DNA from: Escherichia coli
Lineage (GTDB): Bacteria; Pseudomonadota; Gammaproteobacteria; Enterobacterales; Enterobacteriaceae
Strand: one strand, 5' to 3'
Assembly (NCBI RefSeq): GCF_003019035.1
Contig: NZ_CP027447.1
Length of the DNA stretch: 64,000 bases
Shown here: one piece after another, positions 29,558 through 35,312 of the stretch
Numbering within the stretch: position 1 is the stretch's first letter
Layout: every line of letters begins with the position of its first letter
Made by a program: the position numbers and the translations under genes
The notes under the pieces: model-generated
What the model was told of the DNA's origin: nothing
The model's database searches: none
What the model saw: only the letters and a program-made list of their open reading frames with translations

Positions 29558-30322
29558 ATGAAAATGCAGTCATTACCCATCGTTCCATGGATTGGTGGCA
29601 AACGCCGCCTTGCAAAACACATTCTGCCGCTGTTTCCGGCGCATGAATGTTATGTGGAGCCGTTTTGTGGGGCAGCAGCGCTCTATTTTCTTAAGACACC
29701 CGGCAAGATCGAAGTCATTAATGATATCAACGGTGAACTGGTGAATCTGTACCGGGTGGTAAAGCATCACCTGGAAGAATTTGTCCACCAGTTCAAATGG
29801 GCGCTGGTCAGCCGTCAGATCTACAAGTGGCTGCAGATCACCCCGGAAGAAACACTGACGGATATCCAGCGTGCAGCACGGTTCTACTACCTCCAGAAGC
29901 AGGCGTTTGGCGGCAAGGTAGCAGAACACAGCTTCGGTACCTCCACCACATCCCCGCCACGCTTCAACCTGCTGCGTATTGAAGAAGAACTGTCAGCGGC
30001 ACACCTGCGACTTTCCAGAACAGTCATAGAACACATGGACTGGCAACAGTGCATTGAGCGCTATGATCGTCCGCACACGCTGTTCTACTGTGATCCGCCG
30101 TATCTGGGTACGGAAGGCTATGGTGTGGATTTTCCTGAAGGGAACTACTCGCGGCTGGCAGAGCTGGCCCGGTGCATCAGAGGAAAAATGATAATTTCGG
30201 TGAACGACATCCCGCAGATGCGCGAGGTGTTCACTGGACTGAACATACAGACAGTGAATATCAACTACAGTCTGGCGGGGAAACCCACGCCGCGCCGTGA
30301 ACTGATAATCTGCAACTTCTGA
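29558..30322 (+). CDS. DNA adenine methyltransferase, Dam-like
   Basis: 254 aa with the N-terminal AdoMet-binding region (FCGAAALYF) and the catalytic DPPY motif (YCDPPYLG). Confidence 0.85.
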   Translation: MKMQSLPIVPWIGGKRRLAKHILPLFPAHECYVEPFCGAAALYFLKTPGKIEVINDINGELVNLYRVVKHHLEEFVHQFKWALVSRQIYKWLQITPEETLTDIQRAARFYYLQKQAFGGKVAEHSFGTSTTSPPRFNLLRIEEELSAAHLRLSRTVIEHMDWQQCIERYDRPHTLFYCDPPYLGTEGYGVDFPEGNYSRLAELARCIRGKMIISVNDIPQMREVFTGLNIQTVNINYSLAGKPTPRRELIICNF

Positions 30323-30329
30323 AACAGAA

Positions 30330-30352
30330 CCGGAAAGCACAATGCTTTCCGG
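30330..30352. terminator. Hairpin between the convergent methyltransferase and repressor genes
   Basis: CCGGAAAGCA-caa-TGCTTTCCGG, 10-bp perfect stem, 8 bp after the methyltransferase stop. Confidence 0.45.
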
Positions 30353-30438
30353 TAAATCAGCCCATTCCTGCCATGCTACTGACGGCGCTTTCTGAAAGCG
30401 TCCAGATCAACCACCTGTCCTTTGTGTCCGGGTCAGAA

Positions 30439-30816
30439 TCAGCCTGTAAATTTACTTGGTTTGGGTTGAGTATAGAATCGCCCAACCTCAAGAAATGAGC
30501 GTCGTTGTTCCGGAGTCATTTCATCAAATGCGTCCATTAATTTTTGTTTTTCTGGTGACATTTTTGGGACAACATTGGTCATTACATCCCCTCTCTGTCC
30601 TGTAACAACGTAAAGCACGTCAAGCCCTAAAGTAGCCCAAATTGCCAAAGCATCTGCTCCGGGAGCGGATTCATCCTTTTCCCACCGCAATTGGCTTTTA
30701 TAGGATGCCCCCACCAATTCAGCAAACTCAGACTGACTAAATCCTAGGCGGTTTCGTTCTTCTTTTAATCGTGAGCCAAGTGACATTTTTGTCCAATACC
30801 TATTTACATGTCCCAT
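30439..30816 (-). CDS. Phage repressor, XRE-family HTH
   Basis: 125 aa with HTH LGFSQSEFAELVGASYKSQLRWEKDE; divergent from the early operon. Confidence 0.7.
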   Translation of the reverse strand: MGHVNRYWTKMSLGSRLKEERNRLGFSQSEFAELVGASYKSQLRWEKDESAPGADALAIWATLGLDVLYVVTGQRGDVMTNVVPKMSPEKQKLMDAFDEMTPEQRRSFLEVGRFYTQPKPSKFTG

Positions 30817-30878
30817 TTTTGGGATAATAATCTAACATATATAGAGCAAACATCATTGCGTTAATAAAGGAGGCAACA

Positions 30879-31067
30879 ATGACTGCAGAGCAGGTCAAAG
30901 CCCATTTCCGCCGCAACGGAATCACCTTTACCCAGTGGGCAAAACAGAACAACTACACCCGAGCAGAGGTTTACCGCGTACTGAATGGACAGGTAAAAGC
31001 GAACTATGGCAAAGCCCATGAAATCGCCGTCAAGCTGGGATTAAAAACCATCACTGACGCCGCTTAA
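30879..31067 (+). CDS. Small DNA-binding early regulator (Ner/Cro-like by position)
   Basis: 62 aa, strong RBS AAGGAGG; first gene of the early operon, divergent from the repressor. Confidence 0.5.
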   Translation: MTAEQVKAHFRRNGITFTQWAKQNNYTRAEVYRVLNGQVKANYGKAHEIAVKLGLKTITDAA

Positions 31068-32353: not shown

Positions 32354-34135
32354 ATGAATGCTGCCCTGACTGAACGACTGGTTTATGTCGCCCGCGCGGC
32401 ACGTGACGCGGGGCATGGTAAACGCGGTGCAATATACGACGCTGCCTGTGCTGAACTTGGCATGTCCCGCGCCACTCTGCTGCGCAGGCTGAAGGAGGTC
32501 TCTGTGACTGATAAACGCAAAAAACGCGCCGATGCCGGGCGCAGCGCTCTGACCCGCGACGAAGCCGCGCTGATATCTGCCACACTGCGTGAGGCCACCC
32601 GCAAGAACGGTAAGCGTCTCTATTCCATCGCAGATGCAGTGGAAACCCTGCGGGCTAACGGCTTTATCTCCGCAGGCAGAACAGATGAAACCACCGGTGA
32701 GTTTTTCCCGTTGTCCGAAGATGCCATCAGTCGTGCCCTGCGTAACTATGGCCTGCACCCGGAACAACTGGATGCCCCTGCACCGCATACCGAAGTGGCC
32801 AGTCTGCATCCCAATCATGTCTGGCAGATTGACGCCTCACTCTGCACGCTTTACTACCTGAGCAATGGACATAAAGGGCTGCAGGTGATGGACAGCGCGA
32901 AGTTCTACAAGAACAAGCCCGCTAACCTTGCCCGTATCGCCAGTGACCGCGTGTGGAGTTACGAGATTACCGACCATGCCAGCGGCTGGATTTACGTTGA
33001 GTATGTGACGGGCGCGGAATCCGGTGAGAACCTGTGTTCTGTGCTTATCAACGCCATGCAGGAGCGCGGTGGCGCAGACGTGCTGCACGGCGTGCCGAAA
33101 ATACTCTATCTCGACCCTGGCTCGGCAAACACCGCGGGTATGACGAAAAACATGTGCCGCTCACTGGGCATCGACCTGATAGCGCACAGGCCGCATAACG
33201 CCCGCGCCACCGGACAGGTGGAAAAGGCGCGTGACATTATCGAACGCAAGCTGGAGCCGGGTCTGAAGTTCCGGCCGGTTCACAGTCTGGAAGAACTCAA
33301 CGCGCTGGCCGCGAAATGGCGCAGCCACTTTAACGCCACGGCTGTTCACAGCCGCCACGGTAAAACCCGCACGGATATCTGGCTGAAGATTACTGCTGAG
33401 CAGCTGAAAAAAGCGCCTTCCGTTGAAGTATGCCGTGAACTGGCTGTGGCGACACCAGAACTCCGCAAAGTCACGCCAAAACTTCGTGTCTCGTTCCGGG
33501 GCACTGAATTTGACGTATCAACGGTACCGGGCGTACTGGTTGGTGAAAAACTGATGATTACCCGTAACCCATGGCGCAGCGATGTGGCACAGGTGGTTCT
33601 GACCGGTGAGGACGGCCACGAGACGTTCTTCCTGGTCGAAGAGGTCAGAAAGAACGAGTTTGGCTTTGCTGAAGGCGCGGCGGTATTTGGCGAAAGTTAC
33701 AAAGCCCTGCCGGAAACCCCGGCACAGATGGCGGCAAAAGAAACCGAAGCGCTGGTTACCGGTACAGACAACGCCGCAGATGCAGCCGCCGCACGCAAGG
33801 CGAAGGCGCTGCCGTTCGGCGGGCGGCTTGACCCGTATAAACATATCGACGACACCACACTTCCGGCCTATATGCCGAAGCGTGGTCAGGCCTCTGACGT
33901 ACGCGGGCCGCGCACTGAACAACGTCCCATGACTCATGTGGAGGCCGCGAAAGCCCTGCGCGATAAGTTCAGCGCCGACGGCCTTACCTGGACGCCGGAA
34001 CATTACCGCCAGTTAACGGCACAGTACCCGGACGGCGTACCGGAAGCTGCACTGGATGAAGTCATGGCCACGCTGACCACGCCGGCCCGCAGCAGCGTTA
34101 TCAGCAGCGTTATCAGCATTGTTAACGGCAACTGA
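32354..34135 (+). CDS. DDE transposase (integrase catalytic core; functional analogue of Mu A)
   Basis: 593 aa; candidate catalytic region HVWQIDAS...YLDPGSANTAG; followed by the transposition ATPase gene. Confidence 0.8.
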   Translation: MNAALTERLVYVARAARDAGHGKRGAIYDAACAELGMSRATLLRRLKEVSVTDKRKKRADAGRSALTRDEAALISATLREATRKNGKRLYSIADAVETLRANGFISAGRTDETTGEFFPLSEDAISRALRNYGLHPEQLDAPAPHTEVASLHPNHVWQIDASLCTLYYLSNGHKGLQVMDSAKFYKNKPANLARIASDRVWSYEITDHASGWIYVEYVTGAESGENLCSVLINAMQERGGADVLHGVPKILYLDPGSANTAGMTKNMCRSLGIDLIAHRPHNARATGQVEKARDIIERKLEPGLKFRPVHSLEELNALAAKWRSHFNATAVHSRHGKTRTDIWLKITAEQLKKAPSVEVCRELAVATPELRKVTPKLRVSFRGTEFDVSTVPGVLVGEKLMITRNPWRSDVAQVVLTGEDGHETFFLVEEVRKNEFGFAEGAAVFGESYKALPETPAQMAAKETEALVTGTDNAADAAAARKAKALPFGGRLDPYKHIDDTTLPAYMPKRGQASDVRGPRTEQRPMTHVEAAKALRDKFSADGLTWTPEHYRQLTAQYPDGVPEAALDEVMATLTTPARSSVISSVISIVNGN

Positions 34136-34145
34136 GGAGGAAAAC

Positions 34146-35312
34146 ATGCTGGTACTGAAGCAGCAACTGAAAGAGGCCCGTATCCCACAGGCGGTGGTGG
34201 CGAGAGCTGTCGATGTTTCTGAGGCCACGCTGGCCCAGATTGTGAATCATAACGCGTGGCCCCGCACCCGCCCCGGAGAAGTGCGCCGGCGTCTTGCGTC
34301 CTGGCTGGAAAGTCAGGGGATTGATACAACGAAGAGTTTTGATGCTGTACAGGGCGCGGCCACGCCCCGTACAGCGGGTACCACAGATAAAACGAGCCTC
34401 AGTGAGGAAGAGAATATGTTACTCAAAAAACAGGTGTTATTTCCAGCAACCAAAAAAGCGTTTGGTCTTTTCCGTGACCCGTTCGCCGACGAAGCCATGC
34501 AGGGTTCTGATGATGTGTTCACCACCCCGGACATTCGCTACGTGCGTGAGGCGCTGTACCAGACAGCCCGTCATGGTGGGTTTATGGCCGTCATCGGTGA
34601 GTCCGGTGCGGGTAAATCCACGCTGCGCCGCGACCTGACTGAACGTATCAACCGCGAGAATGCGCCGGTAATTGTTATCGAGCCATACATCATCGCTATG
34701 GAAGACAACGATGTGAAAGGGAAAACCCTGAAGGCAGCAGCTATTGCCGAAGCCATTATCAGTACCATCGCACCACTGGAAAGCATCAGACGCAGTCAGG
34801 ACGCCCGCTTTCGCCAGTTGCATCGCGTCCTGAAAGACAGCAGCCAGGCGGGGTTCAGCCACGTTCTGGTGATTGAGGAGGCTCACAGTCTGCCCATTCC
34901 GACACTGAAACACCTCAAACGCTTTTTTGAGCTGGAGTCCGGTTTCAAAAAACTGCTGTCCATCGTGCTGATTGGTCAGCCGGAACTGGCGACAAAACTG
35001 TCTGAACGCAATATGGAAGTCCGTGAAGTCGTTCAGCGCTGTGAGGTGGTCGAACTTCTGCCTCTGGACAATAACCTTGAAGAGTTTCTGACGTTCAAAC
35101 TGCAACGGGCCGGTAAACAACTGACGGACATTATGGACGCCAGTGCAGTGGATGCCATACGTGCCCGCCTGAGCAATCCGGGAAGTCATCGTAAAAATAT
35201 GGTCAGCCTGCTGTATCCGCTGGCCGTCAGTAACCTGGTGATAGCCGCCATGAATCTGGCCGCTGAAATCGGGGTTCCACAGGTCAACGCTGACGTTGTC
35301 AAAGGGGTTTAA
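34146..35312 (+). CDS. AAA+ transposition ATPase (Mu B / TniB-like)
   Basis: Walker A GESGAGKST and Walker B VLVIEEAH; ATG at 34146 with GAGGAGG RBS; the track ORF opens at an upstream TTG. Confidence 0.75.
   Translation: MLVLKQQLKEARIPQAVVARAVDVSEATLAQIVNHNAWPRTRPGEVRRRLASWLESQGIDTTKSFDAVQGAATPRTAGTTDKTSLSEEENMLLKKQVLFPATKKAFGLFRDPFADEAMQGSDDVFTTPDIRYVREALYQTARHGGFMAVIGESGAGKSTLRRDLTERINRENAPVIVIEPYIIAMEDNDVKGKTLKAAAIAEAIISTIAPLESIRRSQDARFRQLHRVLKDSSQAGFSHVLVIEEAHSLPIPTLKHLKRFFELESGFKKLLSIVLIGQPELATKLSERNMEVREVVQRCEVVELLPLDNNLEEFLTFKLQRAGKQLTDIMDASAVDAIRARLSNPGSHRKNMVSLLYPLAVSNLVIAAMNLAAEIGVPQVNADVVKGV

Follow-up and report, generated by a model that had tools for sequence, protein, structure and literature searches.

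How does a transposable prophage stay silent in its host, and which piece of DNA does its repressor hold? The question is raised by a locus of Escherichia coli (RefSeq assembly GCF_003019035.1, contig NZ_CP027447.1), analysed here as a stretch of 64,000 nucleotides that we call the window. Judged by its Mu-type gene content, the prophage lying in this window is a BcepMu-like transposable prophage. Its repressor gene, on the minus strand, stands back to back with an early operon read rightward, which begins with gp16, the gene of a small helix-turn-helix (HTH) protein. At the repressor end of the space between them lies a short palindrome, TCCCA-TTTT-TGGGA. A preliminary description, made from the DNA letters, had reported it at 30811-30824, where it is indeed found, had placed it over the start codon of the repressor, and had seen in the region the likely lysis-lysogeny switch. 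Is this palindrome, which we name O1, the operator of the repressor, and where does the repressor gene begin? Our best explanation of the whole, which we hold with good confidence, is that O1, sitting in the spacer of the early promoter, is bound by the divergent repressor, which thereby maintains lysogeny, probably with the help of a second site, O2. The idea of a control region stands, in a divergent repressor and early operon of Mu type; the start codon had been misassigned.

A palindrome inside the early promoter

A promoter scan found, on the plus strand, TTTACA (−35, 30803-30808) and AATAAT (−10, 30826-30831), separated by 17 bp and matching the consensus at 10 of 12 positions. This promoter, Pe, is predicted to be a sigma-70 promoter driving the early operon rightward from a transcription start at about 30837-30839. 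The palindrome (TCCCAttttTGGGA) lies wholly inside its spacer. Taken with its flanks it forms an 18-bp quasi-dyad, TgTCCCA-TTTT-TGGGAtA (30809-30826), which fills the 17-bp spacer; the full-site consensus is the 18-bp dyad TATCCCA-N4-TGGGATA. In the window the outer symmetry is interrupted by a G at 30810. Five other aligned E. coli genomes have an A there, giving TATCCCAttttTGGGATA, with arms of 7 bp, and eight genomes of this immunity type, compared over 111 bases, each differ from the window by a single base, 30810 being the sole difference in the stretch. In loci L069 and L072 the equivalent position is also a G, with a C facing it on the opposite arm. In the window, this G may have no effect or may make repressor binding slightly weaker.

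Taken by itself, a palindrome of this kind is not beyond chance. Palindromes of this form, two 5-bp arms around 4 nt, number 65 in the window, and 674 if the gap may vary from 0 to 8; an inverted repeat whose arms measure 5 bp or more is present in 69% of shuffled 92-bp intergenic regions, and in 4.8% of random 19-nt segments.

What, then, do the relatives of this prophage have at the same place? Related loci were fetched by way of gp16 (80 viral loci) and of the repressor (13), together with E. coli chromosomal loci. Grouping repressors at a protein identity of at least 60% distributed 69 loci into 14 clusters, the window belonging to cluster 3, and about 60 distinct upstream regions were compared. 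Most of these regions carry a promoter built in the same way, its −35 starting 76 nt before the ATG of gp16, and the −10 reads (A/C)ATAAT in the different immunity types. Nearly every spacer is palindromic (ATGAGAACaataGTTCTCAT, TATACACgattGTGTATA and GTGATCTATAGATCAC are examples), and each of the 14 clusters has a distinct spacer palindrome of its own. In nearly all of them the arms are perfect over at least 5 bp, and up to 10 bp, the exception being cluster 6. Escherichia phage PhiKM is of a different immunity type, with operator TGCTCATAATTATGAGCA and a PhiKM-type spacer that reads TGCTCATAATTATGAGC.

A pair of loci illustrates what varies together with the palindrome. L035 belongs to the cluster of the window, L027 to another one. 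From the −10 to the start of gp16 they share 53 bases out of 53, and gp16 has the same amino acid sequence in both (100% identity); the HTH domains of the two repressors, however, share only 28% identity, and the palindromes in the two spacers are unrelated. More generally, where palindromes are unrelated, gp16 still has 95-100% identity, and the following gene, for an IclR-type protein, is also common to different immunity types. Homology among heteroimmune E. coli prophages starts, in BLAST alignments, at about window position 30827, that is, at the −10. The palindrome tracks the repressor HTH, not gp16 or the other conserved early proteins, and this is what makes us read it as the repressor's operator: O1 is very probably such an operator, overlapping the early promoter.

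Within cluster 3 we compared eight distinct sequences, with protein identities of 67-99%. L069 has a single G-to-A substitution in its right arm; otherwise the TCCCA and TGGGA arms are invariant, and the central four nucleotides vary (TTTT, TTTA, ATTT, GAAA, TTAA, AAAT). At one outer position an A·T pair is replaced by G·C, in both arms at once. O1 retains symmetry at 94.6% of its positions, and O1 and O2 together at 89.6%, as against 30-51% in shifted controls. Covariation comes down to one symmetric double change, a score reached by 41 of 500 shuffles; variable positions are too few to decide, so that the operator argument rests on the comparison between clusters.

The start of the repressor gene

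The longest open reading frame (ORF) of the repressor (30439-30816, 125 amino acids, beginning MGHVNR...) is opened by an ATG at 30816-30814, CAT on the plus strand, that lies inside O1. This is the codon over which the palindrome had been placed, and it is there, in frame; the conserved start, however, is ATG 30786. Protein conservation among related repressors begins exactly at MSLG (MSLGSRL..., from ATG 30786), and from this codon PGAP annotates a 115-residue protein, WP_000052056.1, in all five near-identical E. coli genomes inspected. Start codons were compared in nine distinct cluster-3 sequences. The ATG of O1 is missing or unusable in four of them, being absent from L069, L093 and L094 and put out of frame in L072 by a 1-nt insertion, in repressors that are 67-89% identical (89% in the case of L094). 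In L069, L072 and L094 the reading frame is closed six codons ahead of MSLG by a stop, which in L069 and L072 is a TAA, the complement of part of the −35 TTTACA. The N-terminal extension is open and in frame in five of the nine, and the 125-residue form is not conserved. The in-frame ATG in O1 is confined to a sub-branch in which the operator reads CCCAT.

We conclude from these comparisons that the repressor gene (30439-30786, minus strand) most likely starts at ATG 30786, 30 bases to the left of ATG 30816, which would make 30787-30878, 92 bp, the true intergenic region. Those are the very coordinates that the preliminary description had given, while speaking of a 62-bp region (30817-30878) that would hold both promoters; the −35 of Pe lies outside the latter, and the leftward candidates are weak. 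That the repressor is without a Shine-Dalgarno sequence, as had been noted, is true of either start. Pairing with the 16S rRNA tail amounts to +0.4 kcal/mol for ATG 30816 and to −3.7 kcal/mol for ATG 30786, a random-like value (40% of random 20-mers reach −3.0 or lower), compared with −11.6 kcal/mol for gp16, which has AAGGAGG at 30867-30873 on the plus strand.

The product, 115 residues long, is an XRE-type HTH protein, the positional equivalent of BcepMu gp17. Pfam identifies HTH_3 (E = 2.9e-4; at 21.3 bits it narrowly misses the cut-off of 23) and HTH_31 at residues 13-60 of the 125-residue ORF, and PHROG matches are with transcriptional regulator or repressor families, down to E = 2e-12. 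Matches in the PDB include the N-terminal domain of P22 C2 (E = 0.0035) and ImmR of ICEBs1 (E = 2.9e-4), the DNA-binding domains of which bind dyad operators. The DicA and RstR subfamilies of NCBIfam are matched below their cut-offs. An S24/LexA-like autocleavage domain (Peptidase_S24) is matched in neither Pfam nor NCBIfam, in a protein that has a short tail.

This repressor is modular. Its N-terminal HTH is 24-42% identical between clusters; the C-terminal 48 residues or so (30439-30585), of the form SPEKQKLxDAFDxMTPEQRRxxLExGxxxxQPKPxKxxG, have 50-83% identity across clusters 1, 3, 5, 8 and 11. Among the loci examined in this respect (L002, L017, L027, L033, L045 and L072), L072 joins an HTH of the window type to an unrelated C-terminus. 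The tail, which matches no Pfam family, may be involved in oligomerisation or be the target of induction.

A similar trap is met in a heteroimmune prophage. In cluster 0, locus L004 (1464-1502, from E. coli SCU-387) has its PGAP start at an ATG inside the operator, yielding 153 residues. Its relatives L032, L084 and L044 are without this ATG; a GTG 12 codons further in, preceded by GAGG or GGGG, is conserved. The annotated start of the L004 repressor is probably too far upstream, as the ATG of O1 most likely is in the window.

A probable second site over the repressor start

Does O1 stand alone? A candidate second operator, O2, reads TGACA-TTTT-TGTCC (TGACAttttTGTCC, 30781-30794), with the 5-4-5 geometry of O1. 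It is located exactly 30 bp to the left of O1, where it covers ATG 30786 and the final 8 nt of the 5' untranslated region (5' UTR). Its GACA/TGTC pairs are invariant in the eight distinct sequences of cluster 3, and in L093 it is a perfect dyad, TGACAttttTGTCA. The arrangement is found in most immunity types: in 13 of the 14 clusters the best match to O1 within 60 bp leftward sits 29-34 bp away, mostly 30, over the translation start of the repressor, and several clusters have there a near copy of O1, identical at 15 to 18 of 19 positions. We take O2, tentatively, as a probable second operator. A direct repeat of the region, D3 (30777-30791 and 30807-30821), is the O2/O1 pair itself. Another direct repeat, D2 (30814-30830 and 30851-30867), and the long-range inverted repeats I1-I3 have no counterpart in relatives and were treated as chance.

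The early transcript and gp16

The early transcript carries a conserved motif in its 5' UTR (30846-30865, plus strand), with family consensus CAAACATCATTGCATCAC; the window has GCAAACATCATTGCGTTAAT. The end of this motif, TTGCATCAC, is near-invariant in all clusters, distant ones included, about 10 nt before the Shine-Dalgarno sequence of gp16, and the copy in the window has diverged (TTGCGTTAAT). Our conjecture is that this motif could be a site for gp16, which is equally conserved, or for a host factor. A conserved RNA structure in the same 5' UTR was ruled out, no pairs being predicted in 16 diverse sequences.

The gp16 protein itself (30879-31067, plus strand, 62 residues) had been described as Ner-like. 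This is true of its position only. It belongs to the TIGR04111 family, BcepMu_gp16, with 96.5 bits for a cut-off of 34 in NCBIfam, and it matches phrog_925; at E <= 0.01, Pfam finds weak HTH_31 and HTH_7 only. It has no match in the Ner family of Pfam (HTH_35), nor any sequence match to a Ner structure of the PDB. Its AlphaFold2 model is a five-helix bundle with a predicted local distance difference test (pLDDT) score of 84. The best fold matches of this model are the 434 repressor and 434 Cro (template modelling, TM, score 0.55-0.61, with weak E-values), and a Ner structure is absent among the 50 fold matches listed. Homology with Ner has no sequence support, and the predicted fold is only generically that of lambda-type repressors. 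In position and general fold class gp16 is an analogue of Cro and Ner; it does not belong to the Ner family. It is not always the first early gene either: in L094, in L022 (same contig) and in L010 an extra gene, the product of which starts with MLANPSKHD..., is inserted between the early promoter with its operator and gp16.

How the switch may work

From the anatomy of the region, its conservation and the way in which operators track repressor types, all of which are observed, we infer the following as to binding, stoichiometry, cooperativity, autoregulation and the role of gp16. The XRE-type repressor (30786-30439, 115 residues) would bind O1, probably as a dimer, with one HTH for each TCCCA arm and an AT-rich centre that would not be contacted. 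Bound there, it would exclude RNA polymerase from Pe, hence lysogeny. A second dimer would probably occupy O2, 30 bp or about three helical turns to the left, where it would tighten repression and also stop transcription of the repressor gene itself, a negative autoregulation. As for gp16, it would have no share in O1 or O2 and would most likely act at the conserved sequence downstream of Pe.

Where would the transcript of the repressor start? A looser positional scan proposes a weak candidate on the minus strand, Pc (30829-30856), made of ATGATG (30856-30851), 16 bp, and TAGATT (30834-30829), with a −10 that overlaps that of Pe. This arrangement is found at the same position in 19 loci from 7 clusters, where the sequence may be conserved for other reasons; variants L008 and L026, read from their sequences, are without its −35. 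Other combinations considered by eye, TTAACG-17-TATATG, TTGCCT-16-GATGTT, and a TATTAT hexamer without −35, were no better. Be that as it may, any leftward promoter situated to the right of O1 would give a transcript that crosses O1 and O2, and it is on this ground that negative autoregulation is proposed.

Several observations weigh against the explanation that we prefer. No leftward promoter with at least 9 matches out of 12 was found by the scan between 30300 and 31200, which leaves autoregulation as a guess. The window has the weakest version of O1, with arms that are perfect over 5 bp only and an outer symmetry broken by G30810. Its O2 matches O1 at 12 of 19 positions, the same as the best match between clusters; the arms of the two sites differ at 2 positions in 5, their likeness being limited to T..CA in each arm. 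The conservation of O2 could in part reflect coding (ATG TCN) and constraints on translation initiation. Further copies of O1 beyond chance were ruled out in the 64 kb: one sequence departs from the 10-base core at 1 position, and four depart from the 14-base form at 3. This denies us internal replication, although it is what a single control point would show. Finally, our search of the literature on BcepMu-like phages found nothing on the operators or promoters of the group, and binding or transcription data for none of its members.

Could the palindrome be something else? Had the repressor been translated from ATG 30816 off a leaderless messenger, as lambda cI is from PRM, the palindrome would control the repressor start as well as the early promoter. 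This was the suggestion of the preliminary description. Besides being in frame, opening the longest ORF and doing without a Shine-Dalgarno sequence, this ATG has upstream of it, on the minus strand, a −10-like TATTAT (30829-30824, 5 matches out of 6) at 7 nt from its A, a compatible spacing, and the extension is open in five of the nine sequences. Yet comparison gives the idea no support, since the codon is lost or out of frame in the four other loci, stop codons interrupt the extension in three of them, and both conservation and PGAP point to MSLG; in L072 the outcome would be an out-of-frame upstream ORF. The ATG is accounted for by the operator consensus CCCAT..ATGGG, TATTAT is without a usable −35 (TGTTTG, 1 match out of 6), and the in-frame spacing of 30 bp is equally explained by operator phasing. 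We consider this explanation unlikely. A related proposal, to which we give as little credit, and less than to the exchange of cassettes considered below, is restricted to the E. coli branch that includes the window: the operator would have gained an in-frame AUG just downstream of this TATTAT, and a leaderless, N-terminally extended isoform of the repressor might be made from a promoter lying under the repressor's own binding site.

It is less probable still that the palindrome is a chance feature of AT-rich intergenic DNA, the real operator being elsewhere or devoid of dyad symmetry. The frequency of such repeats in shuffled regions, and arms of just 5 bp, invite the thought; against it stand a spacer palindrome found, in the same place, in almost every one of 14 independent clusters, to be set beside the few per cent expected of random segments, and the cluster-3 pattern of invariant arms around a variable centre. 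Just as improbable, in our opinion, is a site for gp16, for another early protein or for a host factor, or a site shared by the repressor and gp16 as in lambda. Cro and cI do share operators in lambdoid phages, and gp16, small and of HTH type, has a predicted fold like that of 434 Cro; its near identity, like that of the IclR-type gene, across loci with unrelated palindromes is at odds with this role, for it is the N-terminal HTH of the repressor alone that changes with the palindrome. We give least credence of all to a hairpin in the leader of the repressor messenger, which would mask the upstream AUG or modulate translation or stability. The predicted fold does have a UCCCA/UGGGA stem of 5 bp with an AAAA loop, and a second small hairpin, GACA/UGUC. 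Its energy, −9.3 kcal/mol, is that of shuffled sequences (−8.9 ± 2.5 kcal/mol, z = −0.15), on which ground it was ruled out; the perfect palindromes of several clusters leave no room for a loop, and a hairpin would not explain why the palindrome follows the HTH type of a protein.

If O1 is the operator of a repressor that varies with it, the BcepMu-like family as a whole may have a natural plug-in immunity, with at least 14 mutually distinct pairs of repressor HTH and operator exchanged as a cassette. Such a cassette would end at the −10 of the shared promoter on one side and midway through the repressor gene on the other; the operator would always fit the 17-bp spacer, and gp16 would act at a conserved site outside the cassette, in a switch logic unlike that of lambda. 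A repressor dyad within a lytic promoter is a textbook principle, and the design of the cassette is tidy, not surprising in principle. What the analysis provides is a corrected start for the repressor gene, an account of a small palindrome that one might have taken for noise, and a map, with Pe, O1 and O2, against which the lysis-lysogeny switch of BcepMu-like transposable prophages can be tested. Pairing of repressors and operators could help predict superinfection immunity groups from sequence, and a single promoter scaffold with many distinct pairs could yield orthogonal regulators.

Relation to known switches

Lambdoid phages (lambda, 434 and P22, with cI or C2 and the right operator OR) come to mind first. 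As in the window, the gene of an XRE/cI-type HTH repressor diverges from the lytic operon, the lytic promoter is overlapped by dyad operators 14-18 bp long, next to which a second site stands (in the window, probably), and immunity type is set by matching repressor and operator sequences. As in the 434 operators, conserved arms flank a variable, AT-rich centre in the cluster of the window. The differences are many. The operator of the window fills the −35/−10 spacer instead of covering a hexamer, and there would be two sites instead of three; the repressor, with its 115 residues, is without an S24 autocleavage domain; the downstream operon is for transposition, not for N, cro and replication. 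From the near identity of gp16 next to unrelated operators, it would seem that gp16 is outside the immunity cassette and cannot share operators.

Mu, with its c repressor and Ner, is close in layout: the repressor is divergent from an early operon comprising a small DNA-binding protein, then the transposase and, at the MuB position, an ATPase, and the lytic regulator presumably has its own site apart from the repressor operators, as we propose here. Proteins are of other families, however: the repressor of the window has an XRE HTH and not the winged helix of Mu c and MuA, and gp16 is of TIGR04111, not Ner. Mu has three operators spread across about 200 bp, with a site for the integration host factor (IHF); nothing of the kind was seen in the window.

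The small XRE repressor RstR of phage CTXphi offers another parallel. It is exchanged as a cassette with the adjacent operators of the intergenic region ig-2, while flanking genes are conserved. The repressor of the window appears to be exchanged in the same way. It is not a member of the RstR subfamily (31.7 bits for a cut-off of 80), and phage type and operator layout differ. The closest relatives in arrangement are BcepMu, KS10 and PhiKM, which have the same divergent pair of a repressor and a gp16-type protein; gp16 of the window reaches the TIGR04111 cut-off of this family. PhiKM differs from the window in its immunity type. The KS10 paper gives BcepMu gp17 as repressor and gp16 as DNA-binding protein, in the same divergent arrangement, and gp13 and gp14, respectively, as their equivalents in KS10 (PMC2628397).

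The prophage and its neighbourhood

The DNA of this region is 99.6% identical to a prophage of E. coli A20, one of the strains, with R9, ST69 and MS1657, that carry this immunity type, and DNA homologous to the region is present in 617 of 5,426 complete E. coli genomes. PhiKM, which taxonomy places in Bcepmuvirus, has 85.8% identity across 77% of 1,151 bp of the window region. Its GenBank record, PQ738613.1 (L002), has no annotated repressor gene, although an ORF for an XRE repressor of 118 residues (1640-1996) is intact; the sole feature annotated in that stretch is a 41-residue hypothetical protein on the opposite strand.

In the window, the order of genes is repressor (minus strand), gp16, IclR-type HTH protein, DUF3102 protein, rve-domain transposase and AAA_22 protein. 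The transposase, with an rve (DDE) domain, is encoded at 32354-34135 and the ATPase-type protein with the AAA_22 domain, at the MuB position, at 34119-35312, both on the plus strand and both assigned with Pfam. Further to the left, three minus-strand ORFs (217, 242 and 127 residues) overlap or abut between 26511 and 28262. From their sequences and from the gene layout of BcepMu, they may be a lysis cassette, with a membrane protein and a transglycosylase-like protein.

Close to the repressor gene, and convergent with it, lies the gene of a D12-class adenine methyltransferase, Dam-like (29558-30322). Between the end of the latter and that of the repressor gene at 30439, a terminator-like hairpin (30329-30353, on the strand of the repressor) has an 11-bp stem with six G-C pairs; with its poor T-run, it is a possible bidirectional terminator. 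The operators of cluster 7 (L074, L077 and L079), TGTGATCTATAGATCACA, contain two GATC sites, and O1 and O2 of the window are without any. In that immunity type, with GATC in the operator and a Dam-like enzyme in the prophage, repressor binding could be sensitive to methylation.

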